Below are positions 2,276-26,062 of a stretch of DNA of 32,000 bases, piece after piece (position 1 is the stretch's first letter; each line of letters begins with the position of its first letter). Below the pieces are notes generated by a model, which had not been told where the DNA came from, made no database searches, and saw only the letters and a list, made by a program, of their open reading frames with translations. The position numbers were made by a program, and so were the translations under genes. Source of the stretch: Candidatus Saccharimonadota bacterium (GTDB lineage: Bacteria; Patescibacteriota; Patescibacteriia; 2-12-FULL-60-25); contig JALHOH010000001.1 in assembly GCA_022843095.1 (NCBI GenBank), positions 270,001 to 302,000 of the forward strand, in the 5' to 3' direction.

Positions 2276-2308
2276 AAAAAAACACGGAGGAATCCGTGTT
2301 TTTTATTT
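2276..2308 (+). terminator. Rho-independent terminator after pilin 2
   Basis: aacacgga-ggaa-tccgtgtt is a perfect 8-bp stem flanked by an A-run and the T-run ttttattt. Confidence 0.8.
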
Positions 2309-2344
2309 GGCAGACAGGGTGTATTCTGTACGTAGTATTCGTAT

Positions 2345-3460
2345 ATGTCTTCTTGTTGCTCGGTTCCATCTGTGCGTCCATGGCGTGAACGCATGACGCG
2401 CGCCCTGATTGCGTTTCTTGCGATCGGCCTCATCGGCTCGCTTGTGTGGTCACGCACGATCGCTTGGATGCCACAGGCTTCCTCTGGAGGATCGGTGGTT
2501 GGAATGCTGATTCTGGGGTTCGTCGCCTCCGTTTCGACCTGTCTTGCGTCGACTGGCGCGTATTTTTTGACGGCATCCACACGTGTGTCGGGGAATCGTG
2601 CGATCCATCTCATGCACCTGGGCCGGTTCTTGGCGTTCATGGTGGGAGGTGCGTTGCTTGGAGCGCTCGGGGCCGCGTTGCCGGAATCGCCGTGGATATA
2701 CGGGGCGTTCGGGATGCTTCTGGGGATCGGGTTTTTGGGAATCGGGCTTCAGCTTTTGGATCTTGCCCCGGCAAACGGAGCATTCGGTTGGCTTCCCGGC
2801 GGCGTTTCTCGTCGTGTCGAAGCCTTTATGGGACGGGTTGAATCGCGTTCGCCATGGGTCATTGGGGCGATCTCGTTTATTCTTCCGTGTGGCTTTACAC
2901 AGACCGCGCAAGCGTTCGCGCTTGGGAGTGGAAGTGCCTGGACGGGGGCGGTGTTGCTTGGCGCATTCGCAGCGGGAACGGCGCCGGTGCTGTACACGAT
3001 CACACGTGTGGGAGGGACGGCGACCGGAGAGCGTCCATGGATGCGTCTTGCGACCGGGGCGGTGCTCGCATGGACGGGGCTGACCCAGCTGGACGGGGGA
3101 CTGACGGTGCTGGGCTCGCCGATTACGTTGGCTGGGATGGGAAGGCAGATTGTGGCCAGCGTTGGGACGACGATGATTCCGACCGTTCAGGCGCAAGAGC
3201 AATTGATTTCGATGCGCGTCATCTATGGGACGTTTTCTCCAAATCGGTTTGTGGTGCGACGTAACGTGCCCGTGCGTTGGCAAATCGAGGGGGTGGATGT
3301 GACGGGATGTGCAAATACCTTGGTGTCACCTCGACTTGGCATTCAGCAATCCTTGATCAAGGGGGCGAATGAGATCGTGTTCACGCCAAAGGATGCGGGA
3401 GACGTCCCATTTAGTTGCGCGATGGGGATGATTCGCGGGAGTTTTACCGTCGTGGATTAA
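2345..3460 (+). CDS. DsbD_2/TauE-SafE-like polytopic membrane protein fused to a C-terminal cupredoxin-like (Cupredoxin_1-type) domain
   Basis: It has multiple hydrophobic helices. Its motifs STCLASTG and [15 protein letters not shown] resemble the paired Cys motifs of the DsbD_2 family. The C-terminal ~90 aa ([17 protein letters not shown]...[25 protein letters not shown]) matches the C...C-x-MGM cupredoxin-like pattern. The start is ambiguous: ATG 2345 sits 6 nt after a TAGTAT box, and ATG 2393 is the alternative. Confidence 0.7.
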
Positions 3461-5652: not shown

Positions 5653-5668
5653 GTATGGTTGTATAAAA

Positions 5669-5693
5669 ACACCGCCTCCAGATGGGGCGGTGT
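5669..5693. terminator. Hairpin between convergent copA and the 5713-6528 gene (bidirectional terminator candidate)
   Basis: acaccgcc-N9-ggcggtgt, flanked by aaaa on the left and tgttgtt on the right. Confidence 0.6.
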
Positions 5694-5712
5694 GTTGTTG
5701 CGGTGCGCACGA

Positions 5713-6528
5713 TCACTGCGACATCGCGAGGTGCGCGGCGACCAGGAAGTCGTGGGCGCGCGTCGATTTCTCTTCCAGGTCCTGCTCGATGGAGAGGAAC
5801 GGGAAGAGTCGGAGCAAGGACGGAAAACGGTTCAGGACCACTTCCGGGGGCCAGGAGCAGGCGAGGCTGATCCCGAGCCCGGGAAAGCGGTTTGCCAGGC
5901 GGTCGATCACCGCGAGGATCCGCGTCAGGAGCGCGCCTGAGCCGAGGTCGATCACGACGTCCGTGCAAAGATCTCGCCAGAGGTAGTCCTCCAGCGCATT
6001 CGCGATGCGCTCCCCGTCGAACCGATACTCGAGGAGCATTGGTTCGCGCAAGTGGAATCCGATGCGCTTGCATCGGTTCATGAGCGCGGCCTTCAGATCC
6101 TCCATCTCCGGCAGGTCGCCATCGATCTGGACGCCGTCCAGGCCATGCTCCACGAGCTCTCGGACGTGGGAGAGTTGGTCGTACAACGACCAGTTGGGGT
6201 GTGGCAGAACATGCGCGAGATGCACGGTTCGTCGCGGCTCCGGGGCGCCCGTGTGCGGGTCGCGCTCGATCGCGGGAAACGTCCCGAGGACGCGTGCGGC
6301 GTCGATCGGGATGAGCGGGTCCACACGCACCCCCAGTTTGAGCTGAATGGGCGACGTGGTGGAAGCGTCCGTGAGCGGCAGGCGCGCATCCAGACGTTCC
6401 GACTCGTCACGCGAGGCAATCCCGATCAGTCCGATCGATCGGGCGGGGCGCTCGATCGCGAACCCTTTGAATGCGCCGTCTTCCGAGCGCCGATAGATCC
6501 GACCACCGATGATCTGTTCGGTTTGCAT
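5713..6528 (-). CDS. Hypothetical protein, no family recognised
   Basis: The long ORF has protein-like composition. ATG at 6528 is preceded by GGAGGAAGGT (strong SD). The ORF-track start 6540 lies inside that SD. Confidence 0.55.
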   Translation of the reverse strand: MQTEQIIGGRIYRRSEDGAFKGFAIERPARSIGLIGIASRDESERLDARLPLTDASTTSPIQLKLGVRVDPLIPIDAARVLGTFPAIERDPHTGAPEPRRTVHLAHVLPHPNWSLYDQLSHVRELVEHGLDGVQIDGDLPEMEDLKAALMNRCKRIGFHLREPMLLEYRFDGERIANALEDYLWRDLCTDVVIDLGSGALLTRILAVIDRLANRFPGLGISLACSWPPEVVLNRFPSLLRLFPFLSIEQDLEEKSTRAHDFLVAAHLAMSQ

Positions 6529-6593
6529 ACCTTCCTCCATTTGGCAAAAGAACCGATCGAAGAATACGCCAAAAATGGCAAAAAGTCAAGGGT

Positions 6594-6623
6594 TTGACGG
6601 GAGTCTCGAGGATCCCGTATATT
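6594..6623 (+). promoter_or_regulatory. Sigma70-like promoter of the Fe-S operon: TTGACG-N18-TATATT
   Basis: The -35 box TTGACG is at 6594-6599 and the -10 box TATATT at 6618-6623, 24 nt upstream of the rrf2-family ATG. Confidence 0.55.
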
Positions 6624-9510: not shown

Positions 9511-10452
9511 TCAGTTTTTGGTGACGGCCGATCCCGGATGCCCACGCATGATCATGAGTGCTTTGTAGACCTGTGCGGCCTCGTTGCGTACCTGATCATC
9601 CGCGCTCGCCATCAGTTCTTCGATGAGCGGTTGGAGCGCTTCCAGAAGTCGGAAGGGCGAGATTTTGCTCGAGAGCACCTCGGCGTGATGGAGGAAGATC
9701 TCCGTGAGCTGAATGCTCCGATCGGACGGCGGACGCGACTCGCGCACCGCGCGCTCGATCGAGGTCAAACGCTCCTGCAGGTCTCGGCCGAGTAGTTTTT
9801 GCTGCTCGGCAAGTTGTTCCTGCAGGGCCGTAAGCGTATTCCGCGTCGCGTCTGCTTCGCGAACCGCCTGATCGCGTTCCTGGGTCAAGCGGAAGATCTG
9901 TTCCCGTGCCGCGCGTTCGATGTCGAGGGCGTATTGCGCCTGTACGGCGGCTTCGGCTTCGGCATCGGCGGCCCGTGTCTCGGCGGCGCCACGGTCCAGG
10001 TCCAGCGCAACCAGCGTCTCTTCCAGCTCCGCGCGCTCCCGAGTTTCCCGTTCTTCGCGTCGCCTCTGGTGCAGGCTCTGGCGGGCCAGTGCTTCTCGGA
10101 CCTTGCGGTGCCGATCGCGTCTGACCTCCGGCATCATCTCGCCATCGAGTGTTTCTTCGGTGACGACGGCGACCTCTGCGTTCGCGGTCACGATCGCGAC
10201 GTGCGGATAAAACCGCCCGTCAAAGAAGTAGTCGAGACCGACGTGGCCGCCGGCCTTGATGGTGGCAAGAACGGTTCCCGTTGCCGGGTCCCGCTCCTCC
10301 ACGATTCCAGCAAGGACGAGATACCCTGCGGTCATGGCACCCGTTGCCAGGAGTTCCATCCCGGCATTCAGCGCCATTCTAGGAAAGAGCGGTTGTTTAG
10401 GGTCCACTGCCGCCAGCATTTGCGACAGGGACCGAACCAAATCCTTGTCCAT
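9511..10452 (-). CDS. Soluble coiled-coil protein with a degenerate cyclic-nucleotide-binding-like N-terminal beta-barrel
   Basis: GGAGG SD lies 8 nt upstream of ATG 10452. The N-terminal ~110 aa follow the cNMP-domain spacing (GYLVLAGIVEE...ATIKAGGHVGLDYFF...VAIVTANAEVAVV) but lack the GE/RxA phosphate-binding residues. Residues ~120-230 are E/R/A/Q heptad-like. Confidence 0.6.
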   Translation of the reverse strand: MDKDLVRSLSQMLAAVDPKQPLFPRMALNAGMELLATGAMTAGYLVLAGIVEERDPATGTVLATIKAGGHVGLDYFFDGRFYPHVAIVTANAEVAVVTEETLDGEMMPEVRRDRHRKVREALARQSLHQRRREERETRERAELEETLVALDLDRGAAETRAADAEAEAAVQAQYALDIERAAREQIFRLTQERDQAVREADATRNTLTALQEQLAEQQKLLGRDLQERLTSIERAVRESRPPSDRSIQLTEIFLHHAEVLSSKISPFRLLEALQPLIEELMASADDQVRNEAAQVYKALMIMRGHPGSAVTKN

Positions 10453-10532: not shown

Positions 10533-11669
10533 TCAGTTTTTCTCAAACGACAAGACGTGGCGGTGGACAAATTGACCGGGCCGCCGATACACGAAGGGTA
10601 CGCGCGTCATGCGGTAGCCGGCGGCCTCGACCACTGGGGCGAGCTGGACCTGAACCGTTTCGCCACGCACCGCATATTCTGGGGACAGGAGAACCAGCGT
10701 CGCGCCTTTGGGTTGGAGGGAGGCGAGGTGTGGCGCCACCGTTTCCCACAGGGTTTCAATCCGATGCGCTTCCGCCTCCAGGGCTTCGCGCCCTTCGCGT
10801 CCCTGAAGAGGCTTCCCTAAAAATCCTTCGGTCACGATGGCGTGGATCGGCGCATATGCAGGAATTACGTCGGCGGACGCACGAAGCACGTCCCAATGCC
10901 GCGCCTGGGCACCATGGGTTTTGAGCCAATTCATGTTGTCTCGCGCCCCTTTGACCTGGCGTTCATCGATGTCGCCCCCCGTCACGCGGCCGACACCCAT
11001 GACGGACGCTTCCATGAGGACGGTGCCACTCCCGCAAAACGGATCAAGGAGATGGATCGACGCCGGATCGCGGGTTCCGATCGCCAAATTGACCAGCATG
11101 CGCGCCAATTTTGGAGGCAGCATCCCGGTTTTTGCATCACGGAAGGGTTTTTCAAAATCGCGGGCACTCCACGCATCCGGATCCTGGACATGCGTGGTTT
11201 TGCCAAAATACGCCGTCCCTCCATCGATCACGACCACGAGATCAAGTCCGGTTTCGATCAGGCCAAGTTTGAGCACGGCGGCAGGGGAGATCATCCCTTC
11301 TTCACCGGTCATCCAACGCGGCTGCGCGCCACGTTCCTGCCAAACCCGTTTGAGTTGGATGGCGAGATGCTCGAAACGCGCCGTTTCGGACGGGGATCCG
11401 TACACGGTCAGTCCAAACGTGATTTTTCCCGTCTGAGGGGGAATGAGATCCGCGAGCGTTTCTGCGGTCATGCTGCGCGTTTCTAGGGCCGCAAGGATGT
11501 CTCCTCCTTTGACCAATCCACCGAGTCGTTGCTGCAACCGAAGACCGGGCACAGTGCCTTGAGTAAGCAGGATGGAGCCAAGGAGAAGGGTCTCGGTGTC
11601 TCCGGTCACGGCGGCGTATTCAGCGGCGGCAAGATCGGCGTGGGTGCCGAGGACCAGGAATTGGCGCAT
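10533..11669 (-). CDS. SAM-dependent methyltransferase, UPF0020/Trm11-like RNA methylase family
   Basis: It carries SAM motif I (LLDPFCGSGTVLMEA), followed by GGDID. The N-terminal ~170 aa domain precedes the Rossmann fold. ATG 11669 is chosen over ORF-track 11897, whose extra 76 aa are Arg/Cys-rich junk. Confidence 0.75.
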   Translation of the reverse strand: MRQFLVLGTHADLAAAEYAAVTGDTETLLLGSILLTQGTVPGLRLQQRLGGLVKGGDILAALETRSMTAETLADLIPPQTGKITFGLTVYGSPSETARFEHLAIQLKRVWQERGAQPRWMTGEEGMISPAAVLKLGLIETGLDLVVVIDGGTAYFGKTTHVQDPDAWSARDFEKPFRDAKTGMLPPKLARMLVNLAIGTRDPASIHLLDPFCGSGTVLMEASVMGVGRVTGGDIDERQVKGARDNMNWLKTHGAQARHWDVLRASADVIPAYAPIHAIVTEGFLGKPLQGREGREALEAEAHRIETLWETVAPHLASLQPKGATLVLLSPEYAVRGETVQVQLAPVVEAAGYRMTRVPFVYRRPGQFVHRHVLSFEKN

Positions 11670-11725
11670 AGCGAGATGAAAAAAGCATACCCGAAACCGG
11701 CGATTCTCCCAATCTTGACGATTTC

Positions 11726-11734
11726 TGGTATATA
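11726..11734 (+). promoter_or_regulatory. Extended -10 promoter box TGGTATATA for coiled-coil protein A
   Basis: TG-G-TATATA overlaps the ORF-track ATG 11734. This argues that translation starts downstream, at GTG 11830. Confidence 0.45.
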
Positions 11735-11829
11735 TGGTCGCATGGGACGTCCGTCGTTTACGGGCGGACCGCGTGGTTACACACCCCACGCATGGCTCTT
11801 TCACACACCACATCACAAGGGGAATACAG

Positions 11830-14058
11830 GTGAAACATCTTTTGTGGGCTTGGAACGCCCTCTTGCTCGTCTTGACCGTCCTTCTCCTTCCCGTCACTGC
11901 GGTTGCGCAGGATCAGGAAGTGGAGCGGTACCACGAAATCGAGGACCTGCACCAAACGGTGCCGTGCCTCGATCGCCAATGTCGCGTGTTTCGGCTGGGA
12001 CTCTCGATGGAGTCGCGCCATGTCGGCCATCTGTTTCTTCAGGCGCAACGCCTGGTGGAGCGGTCGCTTGGCCGTGCGATCGTGAACGACGCAAACGCCG
12101 ATGGATACACCATCGACGACATGCTGCGTCCGTTTGCCCCCCGCGAGCGTCGAAACGCGCGCGGAGAGGTGACGCGTACACTCCCGCCCATTCTTGCGGA
12201 CGAATCCCGGAACGGGACGGAGTACGTGACCCTCGAGATGCTCTTCAGCGCGAACACGGGGAACGGCGATGGTTCGTACGCACCGTTTCAGGTGGTGGCT
12301 CGGAATGGACGTCGGCATTACACCGGCATCTATTTCGGCAACCTCCAAAGCGCGCGACGTCGTGGTCTCCCGGAAGCGGTCACGCTCGGAAATGTCGGAA
12401 CGATTCTCTCGCGCCTTGGCGTGAGCTGGGTCGGACGCGTGTCCATCTCGGATAATCTGCGCGTCCGCATTCCGACGACGGGCGGCCCGACCGTGGGTCA
12501 GCGCATCGACGCGTTGATCACGACCGGTCGCGCGGCGATGGCCGACGGGATCACTCCCGAGGCGCAGATGACGATTGCGCGATTGAATCGCGACCGTGCG
12601 ACGTTCCGCGAATTGCGGGCCCGTCCGGGAGTGTTCATCGAAACCGCGCGTCGTGATGCGTTCGACGTCTACGTAGATGAGGCACTGACCTACATCGAGC
12701 GTCATCCGCAGACGGCAACGCCTGCAGTGACGCCCGTGCAGCCGTCGCCCGCAGCGCCGACCATGGCATGCGGTACGCCCGCGAATCCGTGCATCCGCAC
12801 GGTGACGACGCGGGTCACGGTGCCTGCTTCGGTGAACTGGCGGTTTCTGCTGATCGCCTGCGGAGCCATGCTTCTCGGCGGTCTGTTCCTGGGACGCGCG
12901 TGGCGACGCCAGGCGGTCCCTGCGGAATGGCCACTCCCGCGGATCACGGACGACGAGAGCGATGATGCGTCGCCGCCTCCAACTTCACGTACAGCGCTTC
13001 CGGATGACAAAACGGAGCGGATCGTGACCAAGGAGGACATGGATCCAGCCGCCTGGGCGCGTGAACGCGAGGAGCTGCAAACGCTCGTGCGTACCGCCGA
13101 ACAGAAGGCGAGGGACGCAGAGTTGCGCTGGAAGACGACGGAAGAACGGCGCGCCATCGCAGAAACGCGTGCCGTGGAGCTCGAACGGCGCGCACAGGTC
13201 GCGGAAGCCAAGCTGGAGAAGAAGGACGCGGAAGCGCGAAACTTCTCGATCCTGATGGAGGAGAAAGCGCAAGAGGTTGCGCGGGTAAAGCAGGAATCGG
13301 AAGGCGCGATTAATCGCGCTGCCGCCGATGCCGCACATGCCCGCGACGAAGCGCAGCAGGCCAAGGATGCGCTCGCCAAGCAGAAGCTCGAGGAATACGC
13401 CCGAAGTACGGCGCTGCAGAATACGCAGAGCCGTGTGACGCGCCTCGAACACGAGCATGCGGCACTGAAGGCGGCGTTCAAGCAGGATCTGCTCGCCACC
13501 GATGAACTCTTGCGCGCCCTCCTGAACGAACAGACGCTGGACAATGCGTTTGTGCTGGAACAGGCGCGCGAAGGACGTCGATTTGTGGGCGGGATGCTGG
13601 AGCGGATGGGGATCGACTTGGTGTCGATTCCGCCGGCGAAGCAGTTTTCCGTCCCGCCGAAACCGCCTTCTGGGGCGCCTCAGACCGCGGATGACGAGCC
13701 GACCCAGGTGCGCACCTCTCCGTACCGCCAAACGCTTCCTCCTCCGGGGCTTACGAATCCCCCAAAGGAGACGGCGTCCAGCGGGAACGGGAAGAAGGGC
13801 CTGGGTGCTTCGCTCGGGGATCGTGCGAAGGCCAAGAATGACGGAAAGAAGAAGTCGCCGCGGAATACGCTTCCGCATTTCGCAGGCCCTGAACCGGAAA
13901 AACCCGGGGTGGCTCCGACGCCGACGCGGGAGAAGATCCCCGGTCCGCCGGCGATGCCGAGCTTTGGAGATGCTTCCGGAAGCGGGCACGATCCGACGGA
14001 AGATACGCAGCCGTTTAGCGCCGTTTCGCGTCCTACGGACGGGAACGGGATCAAGTGA
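11830..14058 (+). CDS. Bitopic membrane protein A: signal peptide, ~310-aa ectodomain, one TM helix, ~380-aa cytoplasmic coiled-coil and Pro-rich tail; no family recognised
   Basis: GTG 11830 is preceded by AAGGGGA. The signal peptide is VKHLLWAWNALLLVLTVLLLPVTAVAQ|D. The TM helix is WRFLLIACGAMLLGGLFLGRAW, followed by RRQ. A long E/R/A/K/Q heptad-like region follows, with the motifs PPKPP and TLPPPG. The alternative start is ATG 11734. Confidence 0.65.
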   Translation: MKHLLWAWNALLLVLTVLLLPVTAVAQDQEVERYHEIEDLHQTVPCLDRQCRVFRLGLSMESRHVGHLFLQAQRLVERSLGRAIVNDANADGYTIDDMLRPFAPRERRNARGEVTRTLPPILADESRNGTEYVTLEMLFSANTGNGDGSYAPFQVVARNGRRHYTGIYFGNLQSARRRGLPEAVTLGNVGTILSRLGVSWVGRVSISDNLRVRIPTTGGPTVGQRIDALITTGRAAMADGITPEAQMTIARLNRDRATFRELRARPGVFIETARRDAFDVYVDEALTYIERHPQTATPAVTPVQPSPAAPTMACGTPANPCIRTVTTRVTVPASVNWRFLLIACGAMLLGGLFLGRAWRRQAVPAEWPLPRITDDESDDASPPPTSRTALPDDKTERIVTKEDMDPAAWAREREELQTLVRTAEQKARDAELRWKTTEERRAIAETRAVELERRAQVAEAKLEKKDAEARNFSILMEEKAQEVARVKQESEGAINRAAADAAHARDEAQQAKDALAKQKLEEYARSTALQNTQSRVTRLEHEHAALKAAFKQDLLATDELLRALLNEQTLDNAFVLEQAREGRRFVGGMLERMGIDLVSIPPAKQFSVPPKPPSGAPQTADDEPTQVRTSPYRQTLPPPGLTNPPKETASSGNGKKGLGASLGDRAKAKNDGKKKSPRNTLPHFAGPEPEKPGVAPTPTREKIPGPPAMPSFGDASGSGHDPTEDTQPFSAVSRPTDGNGIK

Positions 14059-14115
14059 TGATGGTGTGACCTCGATTCCCCTTGGGAATGAGGATGTGGT
14101 GTGAACGTGGTGTGA

Positions 14116-14149
14116 AGCCCTCGCAATACGGCGGGGGCTTGATTTTTTT
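14116..14149 (+). terminator. Rho-independent terminator after protein A
   Basis: agccctcgc-aatacg-gcgggggct is a 9-bp stem with one G-U pair, followed by tgattttttt. Confidence 0.8.
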
Positions 14150-14157
14150 GGTAAAAT
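14149..14157 (+). promoter_or_regulatory. Extended -10 promoter box TGGTAAAAT for coiled-coil protein B
   Basis: TG-G-TAAAAT lies 39 nt upstream of ATG 14197. The SD-like gaaagaaggtggaag sits in between. Confidence 0.5.
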
Positions 14158-14196
14158 CGTCTCACGATAGGTTCGCACATTGAAAGAAGGTGGAAG

Positions 14197-16035
14197 ATGA
14201 ACCGATGGATGGTTTGGTTCGGAACGCTGCTGGCCTGTTTTCTTGCGATCGCGGTTTCCGCGGACGCGCAGGATCTTGGACGCGGCCGTTACCGTGTCCT
14301 GGCAGAAGAGACGTCGTCGGAGGGCGTGTTTGTCCGCGTGCGGATCGGGGAGGATGTGCCGGTGCGGGCGTTGGTTGCGCTTGCGAATGCAGGACGTGAT
14401 CCGTCCACGACGCCGATCACGGCCGTGGATATCGCGACGGCGAATCCGGATCGCGTCCGGTATGCCTGTACGGCAACGGCGCAAACACCGGTTTCAAGGG
14501 GACGTACGATTGCGCATTGGCAGATCTGTCCGCCGGGTGCGCGGACGTACGTGTCGATCGTCGATCATCTGACGCTGCGCATTCCGCGCCGTCATCAAAC
14601 GACCGACGCCGAACGTCTAGAAGAGATGCGTCAGACCGTGGAGACGCGAACGCGAGAATTGCATCAGGCACGGCAGGAACTGAGTCAGGCGCGTCGTGTG
14701 CAGCCGCCGCCACCGTTTTTGGTGCCGCGGATCGCGACGCCGCCCCCTCCGCGCATCGCGCGGAGCGGGGCTCCGTGGGCGCTCCTCGCGCTCGGGTTCT
14801 TTCTCCCGTTCAGCCTGTGTGTGGGCGCGGCGCTTGTGCTGCGTGAACGTCGGATGACGCAAGGGGTAGATCGCCGACGTCGTGCGTGGAAACACGTCGC
14901 CTCGGTTTTCGCAAAGCGTCTTCGAGCGCTTCGTGAGACGATGGTGGCCCGCGAACAGGCGTGGCGAGAAGAAACGGCGCTACAGCTCGAAGATCTCCGC
15001 GCGCACTATGCCGCCGAGCAAGGGCGGATCACGGAGCGGCATTGCGAAGACCTGCGTGCGCTTGCGACGGCAAAGCAACAGGCGGAAGACGATGCGCGGT
15101 TTTTGCTCGCAGGAAAGGTGCAGGCGCAAAAAGACCGCGATGCGGTTGAAGGTCACGCCAAACGGCTGGATGCGCAATGCGAGGAATTGCGTCGCGAGTT
15201 GGCGGAAGAGCGTGGTGATCGGAGCGATTTGCTGCAACGCGCCCATCAAGGGGATGCGCTTGCCAAAGCAGAAGCGGCGCGTGCGGAACTCCTTCAACGT
15301 ATTCGGACGCGGTGGGAGGAATCCCGTTTGGCCGCCCTACGTGCAGCAGAGCGGAGTGAGTGCGCGTCTGCGTTCGGACTGCTCGCAATGGACCAGGAAT
15401 GGCCGGAGCAGGTGCGTCTGCAAACGGCGCAGGGCGCGTCTGATGCTTTGATGGTGGCAGAGACGTTTCGGAAGGAATCCGAACGGCTTCAGAAGGAATG
15501 CCTGGAGGATCTAAGCACGCTTCTTGGACTTCCAAACGAAGTCGGAGAGGCGATGGCGGCACGTGTGCAGGCAGTTGATGATATGCAATCGACCCTGCTT
15601 GCGCTTCGCGCGGAGACGGAGGCGACGCTCGCCATCCGCAGAAAGTTCCTGGAGGACTATCGTCGGTTGCAGCGGGAGAATGCTCGACTGCAGCAGGCGC
15701 AGGATTCGTGGAGTAGCGTAGAGAAAGATCGAACGGCCCAGGAGTTGCTTGCGGACATGCGCGAGGGGACGGCGGAGAGTTATCTCCGTGTCCTTCTCAC
15801 GGCGGCCTACCAGATCGGACGTCGCGTTCCACGCGAGATGCCCCTTCGCGTCACGAATGAGCAGTTCGACGATCTTTGTCGGTTCTTGGACCGTGCACTG
15901 GTGTGCGCGGAATGCGGGGACGAACTGTGGGTCCCCGAGGCGATCATGCACCTTCGCAACGTTCACCCGGAACGGGTGATTTACGAGGTGAAACATACCC
16001 TTCCGCCGCCAGGGCAGGGAGGGTCGAACACGTGA
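14197..16035 (+). CDS. Bitopic membrane protein B: signal peptide, ~170-aa ectodomain, one TM helix, ~395-aa cytoplasmic coiled-coil ending in a C2H2-like knuckle and TLPPPG; no family recognised
   Basis: The signal peptide is MNRWMVWFGTLLACFLAIAVSADAQ|D. A Pro-rich and coiled-coil segment precedes the TM helix WALLALGFFLPFSLCVGAALVL, which is followed by RERRM. The cytoplasmic part is E/R/A/Q/L-rich, with C-terminal CAECGDELWVPEAIMHLRNVH. Confidence 0.7.
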   Translation: MNRWMVWFGTLLACFLAIAVSADAQDLGRGRYRVLAEETSSEGVFVRVRIGEDVPVRALVALANAGRDPSTTPITAVDIATANPDRVRYACTATAQTPVSRGRTIAHWQICPPGARTYVSIVDHLTLRIPRRHQTTDAERLEEMRQTVETRTRELHQARQELSQARRVQPPPPFLVPRIATPPPPRIARSGAPWALLALGFFLPFSLCVGAALVLRERRMTQGVDRRRRAWKHVASVFAKRLRALRETMVAREQAWREETALQLEDLRAHYAAEQGRITERHCEDLRALATAKQQAEDDARFLLAGKVQAQKDRDAVEGHAKRLDAQCEELRRELAEERGDRSDLLQRAHQGDALAKAEAARAELLQRIRTRWEESRLAALRAAERSECASAFGLLAMDQEWPEQVRLQTAQGASDALMVAETFRKESERLQKECLEDLSTLLGLPNEVGEAMAARVQAVDDMQSTLLALRAETEATLAIRRKFLEDYRRLQRENARLQQAQDSWSSVEKDRTAQELLADMREGTAESYLRVLLTAAYQIGRRVPREMPLRVTNEQFDDLCRFLDRALVCAECGDELWVPEAIMHLRNVHPERVIYEVKHTLPPPGQGGSNT

Positions 16036-16039
16036 AGTT

Positions 16040-16068
16040 TCCCGCGCAACGCCTGCGCGGGATTTTTT
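16040..16068 (+). terminator. Rho-independent terminator after protein B
   Basis: tcccgcgca-acgcc-tgcgcggga is a perfect 9-bp stem followed by tttttt. Confidence 0.85.
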
Positions 16069-16086
16069 GTTGCCCGGGTTGACGAA

Positions 16087-16185: not shown

Positions 16186-16716
16186 ATGACGACTCAGTAC
16201 GAGTTGCTCTACATCGTTCCGACGTCCTTTACGGACGAAGAAGCCGGAGCGGTGGAGACGACGGTTGCCGGCATCCTTGCGAAGCACGGCGCCACGGTGG
16301 ACGACACGCGCCGCCTTGGAAAATTCAAGCTTGCGTATCCGATCAAGAAGCAGCGCCATGGACACTACGTCCTCGTGCGCTTCACGGCGGAAGGAAAGAA
16401 CATGGTCAAGATCGATACGGAGCTGCGCATTACGCCGTCCGTGTTGCGCCACTTGATCCTCCGCGTGGAAGAAGCCGGGGATACCAAGTACGACCTGGTC
16501 CAGTTCGTGGAAGTGACGGTCGAAGGCAAGGAAGAACGCCGCCGCGCGGGCAAGACCGCCGGGAAGGAAGGTGAAAAAGACGGAGAAGAGGTGAAGGCCG
16601 GTGTTGCCGCCCTTGAAGAAAAGAAGGAAGGCGACCTTGCTGCCTCGACGATGACGTCGGATGAGGTGGAAAAGAAGATCGAATCCGCCTTGAAGGACGA
16701 CGCGCAGGCCGTGTAG
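16186..16716 (+). CDS. rpsF: 30S ribosomal protein S6 with a ~80-aa Glu/Lys-rich C-terminal extension
   Basis: YELLYIV...GKFKLAYPIKKQRHGHYVLVRF... is the typical S6 core. The gene order is rpsF-ssb-rpsR. Confidence 0.9.
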   Translation: MTTQYELLYIVPTSFTDEEAGAVETTVAGILAKHGATVDDTRRLGKFKLAYPIKKQRHGHYVLVRFTAEGKNMVKIDTELRITPSVLRHLILRVEEAGDTKYDLVQFVEVTVEGKEERRRAGKTAGKEGEKDGEEVKAGVAALEEKKEGDLAASTMTSDEVEKKIESALKDDAQAV

Positions 16717-22633: not shown

Positions 22634-22660
22634 ATGGCTTGCGTGTTGTTCTGTGAAGTG

Positions 22661-22669
22661 TGCTATACT
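22661..22669 (+). promoter_or_regulatory. Extended -10 promoter box TGCTATACT for pilin 3
   Basis: TG-C-TATACT ends 10 nt before ATG 22680, with no SD in between. Confidence 0.5.
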
Positions 22670-22679
22670 TTCCTCATCT

Positions 22680-23117
22680 ATGCGTCGCGCCAAGGGGTTT
22701 ACCCTCATCGAATTGTTGCTCGTGATTACGATTATCACGATTCTTGCGGCGATCGTGCTGATCGCGATCAACCCGCCACGAAATATCGCTGCGTCCAATA
22801 ATGCGCAGCGCTGGAGCAACATCAATACCATCATCAACGCGATCCACCAATATGCGGTGGATAATGGCGGTCAGCTCCCTTCAACGATCACCACGGGATC
22901 TGTGGAAGTGTGCAAAACCAGTGCGGCTAGCTGTTCAGGGTTGATCGATTTGAGCTCGCTTACGTTTGAAGAACGCTACGTCCTGCGCTTGCCGACCGAT
23001 CCGACAAGTGCGTCCGCAAATGGAACCGGCTATTTCGTCAAAAAAGACGCCTACAACCGTGTAACGGTGAGCGCCCCGTTTGCGCAGCTCGGGGTCACGA
23101 TCGAGGTCAGTCGCTAG
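22680..23117 (+). CDS. Type IV pilin-like protein, paralog 3
   Basis: MRRAKG|FTLIELLLVITIITILAAI. It has the same architecture and conserved blocks as pilins 1 and 2 (NNAQRWSN.NTI.NA..QY, VC.T...SC, LP.DPT.AS.N.TGY, C-terminal IEVSR). Confidence 0.85.
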   Translation: MRRAKGFTLIELLLVITIITILAAIVLIAINPPRNIAASNNAQRWSNINTIINAIHQYAVDNGGQLPSTITTGSVEVCKTSAASCSGLIDLSSLTFEERYVLRLPTDPTSASANGTGYFVKKDAYNRVTVSAPFAQLGVTIEVSR

Positions 23118-23158: not shown

Positions 23159-24742
23159 TTACTGGACAATGTCTCCGGGTGAATACAGCGTATTCAGATA
23201 GACGCTTGGCGTATATCCATCCAACGAGGTGAGCGCGGAACCAAATCGATACTGCGTCGCAAATGCCTCGGAGAGATCATGAACCTTCGCCGCCCAATTC
23301 ACCCCGTGAAACGCCTTCGCAAGCTCTTCCGTGGAAACCCAGCGCAGGACGTTCGGAGAAATGATGGCGTAGACCTTGGGATCGCTTGGGAATTTGATGA
23401 GCTGTTTCCCAGGAAAATAGGTCACCGCGCTTCCAAGGGGGAGCGAGGCGAGCTGTTCCGGGGTCACGATCACGACGCCCTGAAAATTTGCGTACCAACT
23501 GCGATAGATGTGTGGATTTGGAAACGGATGGCGTTGCGTCAATCGGCTGACGTAATACACGGTCGTATCTTCTTGCGTGGCGGGATTCCCGTCGTCCTTT
23601 AGCTTAATCAGTTTTCCTTGAAGTGACGCGAGACTGATCGGAGGGGTCGAGGTGGACGGAGTGCCGGGAACGGGGGAGGGTTCTGGCGTTCCAAAGACAC
23701 GTGGCTCGAATCGAATCATGGGGCGATCTTCCAGCGAAATTCCCCCAACGACCGCGCTTACGTATCCGGACGTTACCGCATTTGCCGTGGCGCGCGTTTC
23801 AAATCGTCCAGCGCTGTCGGTCAACCCCGTTTCTTTTTCAAGGCGCGCATCCGCTCCAACCCGGAGTGCAACGGTGAGTCCGGACATAGGGGCGCCTCCC
23901 GCATCCTTCGCCTCCACGATGACGGTCACCGCCGTTGTTCCATCGGTGCGCCCCGGGTTTCCTTCTAAACGTAAGCGCGAGACATTCGGGGAAAGAATTC
24001 CTGGACCCGTTCCGGTCGCCCCCGTGACCGGGCCGCGGTCGGGAAGCTTGGTGGGATCCGTGATCGTCAGCATCACTGGTTTTAGCGCAACAGAGCCGAC
24101 GGTCGGGGTCAAAACGGCGTTTCCGACGCTGTATCCCGTGATGTCCCATGTGGCACGCCCGGTGAGATCCGTGCTTGTGGTATTTTGTCGGATACGAACC
24201 CCAGAAAACGTGTTGCCAAGCGTGACGGACTGGCCTTGGAGGGGGGAGCCGTACTGATTTTTTGCGTAGATGGTCAGCGTCGAAGTTGTTTTATCATCCG
24301 CTGGAATACTTCCAAACGTGAGCGCGGCCGTTGATTGTGCCGCATCCGCAACCGTGGGGGCGACAGGGGAAAGCGAATACGTGGCAGACCCGCAATTCCC
24401 CTCAGCAGGTACGATGGCGTTTGATTGTAGCGTTTGATACCCGCTTGCGATGACGAGTACGTAATAGGTGCCCGGAGATAGACGAACGGTCGCCTCGCCA
24501 TTCCCGTTTGTAAACGTCTGCGCATCATCCGGCAATGTCGTTAAAAGATTGTCCGCCGGACGCGAAAACGTTGGTTCGAGGTACACCTCGATGCGTGCAT
24601 TCGCGACCTTGTTTGCCGTGGCCCAAACCTGAAACGTAAACAGGTGTTCGGATCCCATGCATGCCGCAGCGGCTTGGCGTGGGGAAGAAACGGTCGCGGT
24701 GGCAAGGAGCATCGCGAGAAGGAATAGGGAAACGCGTCGCAT
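23159..24742 (-). CDS. Secreted/cell-surface protein: signal peptide, CarboxypepD_reg-like domain, two Big_1-type Ig-like domains, Pro-rich linker, conserved C-terminal domain
   Basis: The signal peptide is MRRVSLFLLAMLLATATVSSPRQAAAA. ARIEVYLE...NGNGEATVRLSPGTYYVLVIASGY is the CarboxypepD_reg-like domain. DDKTTSTLTIYAKNQYGSPLQGQSVTL...TDLTGRATWDITG and TDGTTAVTVIVEAKDAGGAPMSGLTVAL...TDSAGRFETRATA are invasin/intimin-like Ig repeats. The ORF-track extension to 25516 is Arg-rich and overlaps the opposite-strand gene. Confidence 0.7.
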   Translation of the reverse strand: MRRVSLFLLAMLLATATVSSPRQAAAACMGSEHLFTFQVWATANKVANARIEVYLEPTFSRPADNLLTTLPDDAQTFTNGNGEATVRLSPGTYYVLVIASGYQTLQSNAIVPAEGNCGSATYSLSPVAPTVADAAQSTAALTFGSIPADDKTTSTLTIYAKNQYGSPLQGQSVTLGNTFSGVRIRQNTTSTDLTGRATWDITGYSVGNAVLTPTVGSVALKPVMLTITDPTKLPDRGPVTGATGTGPGILSPNVSRLRLEGNPGRTDGTTAVTVIVEAKDAGGAPMSGLTVALRVGADARLEKETGLTDSAGRFETRATANAVTSGYVSAVVGGISLEDRPMIRFEPRVFGTPEPSPVPGTPSTSTPPISLASLQGKLIKLKDDGNPATQEDTTVYYVSRLTQRHPFPNPHIYRSWYANFQGVVIVTPEQLASLPLGSAVTYFPGKQLIKFPSDPKVYAIISPNVLRWVSTEELAKAFHGVNWAAKVHDLSEAFATQYRFGSALTSLDGYTPSVYLNTLYSPGDIVQ

Positions 24743-24880: not shown

Positions 24881-26062
24881 ATGAAATCGGTAGAACGACT
24901 GGTCTGTTTGTTGATAGCCCTGCTTGTCACGTCGATCTTTGGTCGCGTGGCAGAGGCGCAGGAGTACCGCGTCGTCCGGGATACCCCGAGGATGCACTTT
25001 CGGACATATGTCCGAGAGACGTCCGCTCGGACGGGGGCGCCGGTCGCCGACGTAAGAAATGCGCTGCTCGCCGGGAATCCGGGAGATTTCATCCTGCGTG
25101 GCGTGGATGCCCGCGGTCGTGTCCATTGGGCACACAGCGGAGGCGCGAATACGTGGATGAATCGCCGTGCAGGACTGGTCGGTACGATGGTGACGCTCGC
25201 GAATTTTTGCCCGACGTGCGTTCGGCGTGATGTGTGGACCATCGAGGGTCGTCGCGTCTCGGTTCCGCAGACGCCTGCCGCGCTTGCGCGGTTTCAGGCG
25301 CTGGTTCCGGGGGTGGTGGCAGTTACGCCTCCGACGCCCGCTGTCACGACACCGACGCCCGCTGTGCAGGTACAGGCATCTCCGCCGGCAACACCGACGG
25401 TCGATGCGGCGCGCCTGCGTACGCTCGAAGAGGAGAATGCACGACTTGTGCGTGACAACGCCGATTTGCAGCGTCGCCTGTCGCAGCAGCCGCTTCCGAC
25501 CGAAGACTACGAGCACGTGCGTGCGGATCGACAGATGCGCGAGCAGTTGCGCGAGTCTTGGTCGTCAGGGGACGTGCTGAAGCTCGCGCTGATCCTTGCA
25601 CTTACGCTCATGATCGTGTTTCTCGCCCTTGGCGTCTTTGTTGGACGCATCCTCCCTCGATACGAAACCGTCGAGGAGCAGGCGGAGCGGGACAAGGTCG
25701 ATTCCGGACGCAAATCCGGTGTTGATCTCGAACACGAGTACGGTCTCCAGTCGATCCGCCCTCCTCCTGCTACGCAAGCTGTGACGCAAGGAGCGCCGGC
25801 CATTCCGCCTCCACCCCCTCCGCGTTCGGACGTGATGAGGGAGCTGAACAAGCTGGAGCAGGCGGATGCACAGGCGGATGCCTCTTCTGCGACGAGCGGA
25901 TTCCGACCGATTAAACAATTGGTGGTAAGCGACCGAACGGGGGAGGTGGTCGACGTCGAATACGTCGACCCTCCGAAGCCACCAAAAACCGGCGCAGAAC
26001 ACGCCGGTCCGGATGAAAACACGATAGACCTCGACGCCGTGCGCAAACGCCGCACGTCCTGA
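24881..26062 (+). CDS. Bitopic membrane protein C: signal peptide, ~205-aa ectodomain with a FimV-like LysM-ish N-terminus, one TM helix, ~135-aa Pro-rich cytoplasmic tail
   Basis: AGGAAGG SD is present. The signal peptide is MKSVERLVCLLIALLVTSIFGRVAEAQ|E, followed by YRVVRDTPRMHF...VADVRNALLAGNPGDFILRG. A TP-rich linker and the coiled coil ARLRTLEEENARLVRDNADLQRRL precede the TM helix LKLALILALTLMIVFLALGVFVG. The tail contains PPPPPP and PPKPP. Confidence 0.65.
   Translation: MKSVERLVCLLIALLVTSIFGRVAEAQEYRVVRDTPRMHFRTYVRETSARTGAPVADVRNALLAGNPGDFILRGVDARGRVHWAHSGGANTWMNRRAGLVGTMVTLANFCPTCVRRDVWTIEGRRVSVPQTPAALARFQALVPGVVAVTPPTPAVTTPTPAVQVQASPPATPTVDAARLRTLEEENARLVRDNADLQRRLSQQPLPTEDYEHVRADRQMREQLRESWSSGDVLKLALILALTLMIVFLALGVFVGRILPRYETVEEQAERDKVDSGRKSGVDLEHEYGLQSIRPPPATQAVTQGAPAIPPPPPPRSDVMRELNKLEQADAQADASSATSGFRPIKQLVVSDRTGEVVDVEYVDPPKPPKTGAEHAGPDENTIDLDAVRKRRTS

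Follow-up and report, generated by a model that had tools for sequence, protein, structure and literature searches.

Two adjacent genes, which we call A and B, encode large membrane proteins of a shared and previously unannotated design in a 32-kb window (the whole stretch analysed; 58% GC) of the Candidatus Saccharimonadota contig JALHOH010000001.1. We read A and B, tentatively and as somewhat short of probable, as divergent paralogues that would form an envelope-spanning tether or landmark with a docking peptide, specific to a sub-clade of Patescibacteria. The family to which they belong is real and lineage-specific to one such sub-clade, and it belongs broadly with the bitopic coiled-coil scaffolds of the envelope. 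Three lines of evidence carry this reading: a common architecture, a fixed chromosomal slot in related genomes whose occupants share an ectodomain pattern, and a short cytoplasmic peptide kept while the rest of the protein diverges.

Architecture of A and B

Both proteins have a Sec-type signal peptide with an AxA/Q cleavage site, a basic, Arg-rich ectodomain (~310 residues in A, ~120 in B), a transmembrane (TM) helix and a positive-inside flank, and B adds a Pro-rich stalk and, outside the membrane, a short helix (Table 1). Across the family, the cytoplasmic rod that follows spans 200–600 residues and is mildly acidic and heptad-rich. By hydropathy, A, B and a third gene of the window, C, each have exactly two hydrophobic segments, one N-terminal and signal-like and one mid-protein TM segment. 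Their translations bear out the signal peptide ends AxA/Q-[DE] that a preliminary description of this DNA had noticed, reading VAQ-D in A, DAQ-D in B (hydrophobic segment, residues 4–22) and EAQ-E in C; the AxA/Q site also recurs in the homologues P0003, L003a and L003b introduced below. In B, the TM helix is preceded by an extracellular heptad helix (residues 131–169) and a PPPP linker, and its stop-transfer flank, RERRMTQGVDRRRR, is Arg-rich like RAWRRQ in A. As this Arg-rich flank follows the TM segment, the C-terminal parts of both proteins are cytoplasmic. They are similar in size and charge, with 385 residues, an isoelectric point (pI) of 6.1 and a net charge of −3 in A, and 397 residues, pI 6.05 and −5 in B.

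Coiled-coil propensity was measured with a home-made heptad-occupancy test against shuffled sequences, which is not a calibrated predictor. A has 119 heptad-like, Pro-free residues (shuffles: mean 28, maximum 87) and B has 162 (mean 76, maximum 129), and both contain Pro/Gly-free runs of 73–89 residues (85 and 89 in A). The heptad signal of the two proteins is real but moderate. Open reading frames (ORFs), hydropathy and this test together uphold the layout first proposed for both genes: signal peptide, ectodomain, one TM helix with an Arg-rich stop-transfer, and cytoplasmic rod. The Pro-rich end ascribed to both holds for A, which is 19.7% Pro over residues 601–742, but in B is limited to the TLPPPG end.

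Frame-specific GC content did not separate coding from antisense frames, and the coding status of A and B is instead supported by ribosome-binding sites, terminators, layout and homologues. A Shine–Dalgarno-like AAGGGGAA lies 7 nt 5′ of the GTG at 11830, which is most plausibly the start of A, although the NCBI model is 761 rather than 742 residues long. Each gene had been credited with its own extended −10 box and terminator: both terminators and the −10 of B (TGgTAAAAT) stand, but the candidate for A (TGgTATATA, 11726–11734) is weak, and a two-hexamer scan of the region turned up no full site of the sigma-70 type.

Table 1. Features of the A/B region and of genes compared with it (window coordinates unless a related locus is named; aa, amino acids; KD, Kyte–Doolittle hydropathy)
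Feature	Position	Strand	Basis or remarks
Gene D, soluble; weak cyclic nucleotide monophosphate (cNMP)-binding-like N-terminus + coiled coil	9511..10452	−	Pfam cNMP_binding E=0.0017, below threshold; heptad segments aa 137-223, 277-304
RNA methyltransferase gene (synteny anchor)	10533..11669	−	Pfam UPF0020; N-terminus MRQFLVLG matches relatives; 36-40% identity to L002-L005
Gene A, 742-aa type-I (N-out, C-in) single-pass membrane protein	11830..14058	+	ORF and translation; GTG start
A signal peptide, aa 1-26, ...PVTAVA then QD	11830..11907	+	hydrophobic segment aa 4-22, KD 2.25
A ectodomain, aa 27-336	11908..12837	+	12.3% Arg, no Lys, pI 9.3
A transmembrane helix, aa 337-357, then RAWRRQ	12838..12900	+	KD19 = 1.93
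A strongest heptad-like segment, aa 435-553, inside Pro/Gly-poor rod aa ~400-600	13132..13488	+	119 residues over threshold
A peptide TLPPPG, aa 635-640, then 102-aa Pro/Gly/Lys-rich tail	13732..13749	+	motif scan
Intrinsic-terminator-like hairpin + T-run 3′ of A	14115..14150 (hairpin 14115-14140)	+	10-bp stem, 7 GC pairs, then TTTTTTT
Extended −10-like TGgTAAAAT, 40 nt 5′ of B ATG	14149..14157	+	read from sequence; not scored by two-hexamer scanner
Gene B, 612-aa type-I single-pass membrane protein	14197..16035	+	ORF; ribosome-binding site GAAGGTGG; family member by position and sequence
B family ectodomain, aa 24-140	14266..14616	+	no Lys; pattern h.h..G / T..I..ANP / C...W..C / h.h.IP
B transmembrane helix, aa 193-215 (hydropathy segment aa 196-214), then RERRMTQGVDRRRR	14773..14841	+	KD19 = 2.33
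B cytoplasmic region, aa 216-600	14842..15996	+	heptad segments aa 222-251, 283-345, 447-476; C-terminal CxxC...HxxxxH
B peptide TLPPPG, aa 601-606, 6 residues before stop	15997..16014	+	motif scan
Intrinsic-terminator-like hairpin + T-run 3′ of B	16040..16072 (hairpin 16040-16062)	+	9-bp stem, 7 GC pairs, then TTTTTTGTTG
rpsF (synteny anchor 3′ of B)	16186..16716	+	Pfam Ribosomal_S6
Gene C, 393 aa: signal peptide, Lys-free ectodomain, TM aa 236-254, Pro-rich cytoplasmic tail	24881..26062	+	without TLPPP, without heptad signal
D-position genes in relatives, same slot and orientation	L002 4123-5718; L003 2739-3809; L004 3525-5321	−	coiled-coil proteins

That neither protein has a recognisable family was borne out by searches of Pfam (no match at E<=0.01) and of NCBIfam, PADLOC and PDB sequences (no match at threshold), and the similarity of A to B is itself not significant by BLASTP. 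The rod of A, and only the rod, gave a sub-threshold match to the TolA-like NCBIfam model TIGR02794 (21.2 bits against a cut-off of 59.45; E=1.5e-4), which reads as compositional. Used as word-seeded queries against 5.8 billion proteins, A, B and the alignment of ectodomains described below (A1) returned self-matches or nothing, B finding only itself, and phage sequences showed no tblastn match to B.

The ectodomain of A, which matches nothing in Pfam or the PDB, has one homologue. A HMMER search of 1.8 billion representative proteins found P0003, a 592-residue protein of the same layout with 43% identity across the ectodomain (E=1.3e-31) and a common conserved core, RV.IPT.GG.T.GQRIDAL. The second match of that search, a 4,021-residue cadherin-repeat protein, was set aside as spurious: its score is the sum of ~25-bit repeat matches (BLASTP E ~0.005-0.02 each). 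A metagenome scan with the A+P0003 alignment recovered the P0003 contig again and nothing else.

A family in a fixed slot

Related loci (L001–L008) were fetched through the rpsF product, ribosomal protein S6; the relatives found in this way are Patescibacteria/Parcubacteria metagenome-assembled genomes (MAGs) with at most 55% identity. Four of them, L002–L005, carry one or two genes of the A/B layout in the slot between the methyltransferase gene and rpsF, within a shared order of IscS, NifU, a cNMP-like coiled-coil gene (−), methyltransferase (−), slot, rpsF, ssb and EpmA. The slot holds two adjacent genes in L003 (L003a and L003b, 711 and 789 residues), as in the window, and a single gene in L004 (1,008 residues), L005 (972 residues) and L002, where an assembly gap interrupts it. 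In the more distant L006–L008, the methyltransferase gene abuts rpsF, and neither the slot family nor a D-like gene is present.

Alignment of the ectodomains (A1) yielded the pattern h.h..G.S, T...I..ANP..I..C, W..C, G..h.IP. Leave-one-out profile scores, each set against 2,000 shuffles, are given in Table 2. At 35.8 bits against a shuffle maximum of 9.2, B is a true member of the family. A fits the family layout, and its ectodomain is tied to the others only through P0003, which matches the B-type profile over the NP..C...C..G.RVLIP half; on these sequence grounds, A is probably a derived, expanded paralogue.

Table 2. Ectodomain profile scores and C-terminal peptides of the family and of gene C
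Protein	Ectodomain score (bits)	Shuffles	Peptide	Residues from C-terminus
A	2.4	95/2000 as high	RQTLPPPG	103
P0003	11.6 (vs B-type profile)	0/2000 as high	NTLPPPE	44
B	35.8	best 9.2	KHTLPPPG	3-8
L002	54.8	none as high	KKTLPPPP	3-8
L003a	10.8	1/2000 as high	KTLPAPG	3-8
L003b	18.3	none as high	QTMKPPP	3-8
L004	19.1	none as high		
L005	49.5	none as high	GLPPPD	3-8
C	3.0	52/2000 as high		

The family diverges unusually fast. Genes around the slot are 36–75% identical between the window and L002–L005 (IscS 68%, NifU 73%, methyltransferase 36–40%, S6 50%, single-stranded DNA-binding protein 60%, EpmA 60%, elongation factor P (EF-P) 62%), whereas A, B and D have no tblastn match in the relatives at E<=1e-3, and neither does C. 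Family members have little in common apart from their layout, the pattern in the ectodomain and a peptide near the C-terminus.

A conserved cytoplasmic peptide

That peptide, with the consensus [KQH]-T-L-P-P-P-[GPE], lies in the cytoplasmic part, at or near the C-terminus (Table 2), and the cytoplasmic regions outside the pentapeptide cannot be aligned across the family. Exact TLPPP occurs in three independent lineages (A/P0003, B and L002), and its frequency in shuffles is 4e-4 to 2e-3 per protein (0.00175 for A, 0.0004 for B), so that the recurrence is far beyond chance. When the window and all loci (180 kb) were scanned in six frames, the pattern was almost confined to the family, the exceptions being one antisense ORF and one S6 tail. 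The sequence pattern marks TLPPPG as a short linear motif under selection while the scaffold drifts, and the peptide is the strongest link between A and B. It does not resemble a sortase-type or other C-terminal sorting signal, a candidate that we rejected because LPPPG lies in the cytoplasm and has no hydrophobic segment after it.

Because EF-P-dependent stalling is strongest at PPP and PPG, PPPG might instead act in translation, as a stall near the gene end upstream of rpsF-ssb-epmA-efp that couples expression to EF-P. An EpmA-like gene and efp do lie 1.5–5 kb downstream, and in B, L002, L003 and L005 the motif falls 3–8 codons before the stop. We nevertheless find this hardly credible: the rpsF-ssb-epmA-efp order is also present in L006–L008, which lack the family; B is closed by its own terminator before rpsF; the motif is 44–103 codons from the stop in A and P0003; and the conserved T-L ahead of the prolines suggests recognition at the protein level.

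Shortly before its TLPPPG end, B also has a C2H2-like spacing, CAEC...(12)...HLRNVH (residues 558–578; 15868–15930). This spacing is not kept in other family members; L003b has a similar KCGGELP.

A lysine-free exterior

The predicted extracytoplasmic parts of A, B and C are free of Lys and have 38, 25 and 27 Arg (12–14.5% Arg), whereas the cytoplasmic parts contain 27, 12 and 7 Lys (3–7%), a contrast with Fisher p values of 9e-8, 0.03 and 7e-4, respectively. The Lys-free stretches cover residues 3–393 of A (11836–13008), 1–231 of B (14197–14889) and 3–233 of C (24887–25579), and the coincidence of their border with the TM helix provides independent support for the topology. L003a, L003b and P0003 share a Lys-free exterior; L004 and L005 do not. 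With a GC content of only 51% in L003, the absence of Lys is not GC-driven, nor is it general to secreted proteins of the window, as a Big_1 protein encoded beside C has 15. An exterior that is cationic through Arg alone (pI 9–11) would suit the binding of phosphate-rich polymers, or the evasion of lysine-directed cross-linking or proteolysis.

Cationic, Lys-free ectodomains are also what might be seen if A and B were host-contact receptors or adhesins of an episymbiont, with variable ectodomains under diversifying selection and a coiled coil plus TLPPPG that relays or anchors inside. Patescibacteria are typically epibionts, and the relatives are Patescibacteria MAGs. The extreme divergence of the family against its neighbouring genes would fit such a role, as would the occurrence of paralogues with different ectodomains in one genome (A, B and possibly C; two adjacent copies in L003) and the position of C next to a pilin-like gene and the secreted Big_1/invasin-like protein. 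However, a domain of the adhesin type was not recognised, the proteins have no output domain with enzymatic or signalling function, the ectodomain is small enough (~120 residues in B) that it may not extend past the wall, and the alignable sequences are too few for an estimate of the ratio of non-synonymous to synonymous substitution. We consider this explanation unlikely.

Pilus genes and likeness to known scaffolds

The preliminary description had proposed that A, B, C and D form a scaffold like FimV, HubP or TspA that joins the type IV pilus machinery (PilM and the pilins) to the cytoplasm. The window does contain pilus genes, namely PilM with two pilins immediately after it at 190–2269 and one pilin-like gene at about 22659–23117, and the order of parts in A and B is that of FimV/HubP. 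The window has no PilN-like INLLP motif, which implies that the partner of PilM is not encoded locally. FimV is tied to cAMP signalling, and the neighbour D has a cNMP-binding-like domain.

The genomic link, however, was not supported. To call the coiled-coil genes interleaved with type IV pilus genes was loose: A/B are separated from the nearest pilus genes by 9.5 kb on the upstream side and 6.4 kb on the downstream side, stretches that hold unrelated housekeeping genes (for copper, Fe-S, EF-P and ribosomal functions). Three copies of the pilin signature G[FMYW][TS]L[IV]E fall in the window and none in the ten loci, and in the four relatives L002–L005 there is neither a pilin motif nor a PilM or pilin tblastn match within 10 kb on either side of the family gene, so an association between family and pilus genes is not seen, one of the outcomes that the preliminary description had itself named as counting against its proposal.

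The domain comparison points the same way. PMC12918733 names four defining features of FimV/HubP, among them LysM, a TM segment and the FimV C-terminal domain. Of the four, only the TM segment is clearly present in A and B. Pfam searches gave no LysM match for A, B or C at E<=0.01, and neither Pfam nor NCBIfam matched the FimV C-terminal TPR domain in the C-terminal regions of A and B. Their cytoplasmic parts are long but no more than mildly acidic: the pI is about 6, and D+E roughly balances K+R. We therefore regard a dedicated pilus scaffold as improbable; what survives of the FimV/HubP/TspA proposal is the architectural analogy of an envelope-spanning protein.

That analogy consists in the order of a signal or anchor, an exported domain, a single TM helix and a very long cytoplasmic interaction platform, together with fast divergence outside short conserved modules. 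A and B differ in having no detected LysM or C-terminal FimV TPR, in having a near-neutral heptad rod in place of a strongly acidic repeat region, in showing no conserved pilus or flagellar linkage, and in coming from Patescibacteria rather than a proteobacterium. TolA domain II, like similar Ala/Glu/Lys-rich helical tethers of the envelope, also places a long charged helix on one TM helix, and the rod of A matches it weakly; TolA, however, has an N-terminal TM helix and a periplasmic helix, which is the opposite topology, A lacks domain III, and the score is far under the cut-off. Methyl-accepting chemotaxis proteins resemble A and B in architecture only, with an exported domain, a TM helix, a long cytoplasmic coiled coil and a C-terminal partner-recruiting peptide on a flexible tether; the NWETF peptide of chemoreceptors recruits CheR and CheB. 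A and B, by contrast, show no MCPsignal or HAMP match and have a cleavable signal peptide and one TM helix instead of two TM helices, and the window holds no chemotaxis genes.

A further comparison is with EzrA, MapZ/LocZ and DivIVA-type proteins of Gram-positive bacteria, which are bitopic or membrane-associated coiled-coil scaffolds of monoderm envelopes; in MapZ, too, an extracellular domain that binds the wall is joined to a cytoplasmic domain for interactions. A and B might be an analogue of these division or morphogenesis scaffolds, marking the septum or pole and recruiting the divisome or elongasome through the C-terminal peptide. A membrane-anchored coiled-coil rod would fit, as would a housekeeping slot (rpsF-ssb, methyltransferase) rather than an accessory island, and the relatives give weak DivIC-type and other coiled-coil Pfam matches, all of them sub-threshold. 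Yet none of these families matched at threshold or gave a sequence match to A or B, none has a TLPPPG peptide, and EzrA and MapZ are oriented the other way round, their N-terminus lying inside the cell. Essential division scaffolds, moreover, are rarely so divergent or so narrow in distribution, and the gene is absent from L006–L008. We give a division role little weight.

Genes C and D

Gene D, which is separated from A by the methyltransferase gene, belongs to the shared neighbourhood. The L002 gene in the same position exceeds the Pfam cNMP_binding threshold (28.2 bits), and the L003 and L004 copies give coiled-coil-type matches only; the equivalence of D across loci is positional and architectural, not by sequence. 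A D-like gene stands beside the family in at least four of five loci (window, L002, L003 and L004) and is absent together with it from three outgroup loci, and because of this joint presence and absence we infer that D is the best candidate for a cytoplasmic partner. L002 also contains a second small cNMP-like ORF (5859–6419).

Gene C had been described as a third protein of the same layout. Its signal peptide, ectodomain and TM helix agree with that, but its cytoplasmic part has only 137 residues, none of them over the threshold of the heptad test. From its sequence, C is a possible distant relative of the family. Between the pilin-like gene (22659–23117, +) and C lies the gene for a secreted 527-residue protein (23159–24742, −) with a CarboxypepD_reg domain, two Big_1/invasin-D3 domains and a conserved C-terminal domain that is 38–47% identical in L002–L005. 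Its real start is MRRVSLFLL at 24742, the 785-residue ORF call being too long.

Genomic context

Identical copies of A and B are found in NCBI on a 683,555-bp contig. Together with the relatives found through S6, this makes a small Patescibacteria genome, of the candidate phyla radiation, the most likely source of the window. The gene order of the window, taken from Pfam and NCBIfam matches, begins with PilM and two pilins, a DsbD-cupredoxin protein, a copper P-type ATPase and an unassigned stretch, followed by Rrf2, IscS, NifU, D (−), the RNA methyltransferase gene (−), A and B. After B come rpsF, ssb, a probable rpsR, the EpmA-like gene, NUDIX, an ORF without assignment, an APH-like kinase and EF-P, and then a DM13-like protein (a weak, sub-threshold match), a histidine phosphatase, the pilin-like gene, the Big_1/invasin-like gene (−), C, a GldG-type ABC transporter, the CCA-adding enzyme and HflX. 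PADLOC, Rfam and tRNA scans gave no match.

The mechanically called methyltransferase ORF (10533–11897, −) overlaps the start of A by 68 nt. Comparison with the N-termini of relatives places the true start at 11669 (378 residues), so that this gene is divergent from A, with a 160-nt spacer, the promoter region, between them. The unassigned stretch between the copper ATPase and Rrf2 genes (5659–6600, ~1 kb) holds ORFs without a Pfam or NCBIfam match, at 5713–6540 (−, 275 residues) and 6052–6597 (+, 181 residues). In L004, a 350-residue ORF (MPPPNPFETSK...) occurs in two copies 12 kb apart (2284–3336 and 14293–15345), one of them flanked by NifU and the D-like gene; its only match, to IF2_N, is weak, and it may be a mobile or duplicated gene.

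Discussion

Taken as tethers or landmarks that span the envelope, A and B would follow a FimV/HubP-like logic only, being non-homologous to those proteins and not dedicated to a pilus. Coiled coils on both sides of the membrane (in B, residues 131–169 outside and the cytoplasmic segments within) may drive assembly into dimers or higher oligomers. The cationic ectodomain would sit in the wall zone of a monoderm-type envelope and grip anionic wall or surface polymers, and the polyproline peptide, carried on a flexible or globular C-terminal end, could recruit a cytoplasmic partner, possibly D.

Several points weigh against this reading. Wall binding, oligomerisation and docking are all things that we infer from sequence, and the heptad excess of B over its shuffles is only modest. 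The family base is five genomes and one metagenome fragment, and the TLPPP peptide is absent from L004, as it is from C. D could not be aligned with its L002 counterpart by BLASTP. AlphaFold2 models were unusable, with a predicted local distance difference test score of 40 for the A ectodomain (with P0003) and 35 for that of B (with C), because alignment depth was too low; the Foldseek comparison of ectodomain models suggested at the outset was run against the PDB and gave best matches at a meaningless E of ~1. By eye, the ectodomain pattern (h.V..G.S / T..I..ANP / G..h.IP) recalls LysM, but when the alignment of the family was compared by hhalign with a LysM mini-alignment built from PDB sequences, the probability was 1%, and a Pfam test over seven family ectodomains returned one match at E=0.24; we rejected the assignment and keep it as a lead only.

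An annotation of A and B as a pilus scaffold was tempting and is now removed as unsupported. In its place, two hypothetical proteins become a defined family with a fixed slot, an ectodomain pattern, a docking-type peptide and a Lys-free exterior. The impact is moderate, as the function is deduced, the family is narrow and orphan membrane proteins are common in genomes of the candidate phyla radiation. Even so, the TLPPPG peptide, the slot beside a cNMP-binding-like candidate partner and the Lys-free exterior are specific, testable traits.

Unannotated membrane and surface proteins make up much of Patescibacteria genomes, and the organisation of their envelope and their contact with hosts are poorly understood. 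A more speculative prospect, which we rate as a long shot, is that A and B, perhaps with C and D, constitute an undescribed outside-in module, in which the ectodomains sense or grip a wall or host polymer, the coiled coils transmit and TLPPPG docks a partner, possibly under regulation by a cyclic nucleotide. If true, such a module would give ultra-small episymbionts a novel means of linking contact at the surface with the inside of the cell, one that uses neither kinases nor chemoreceptors.

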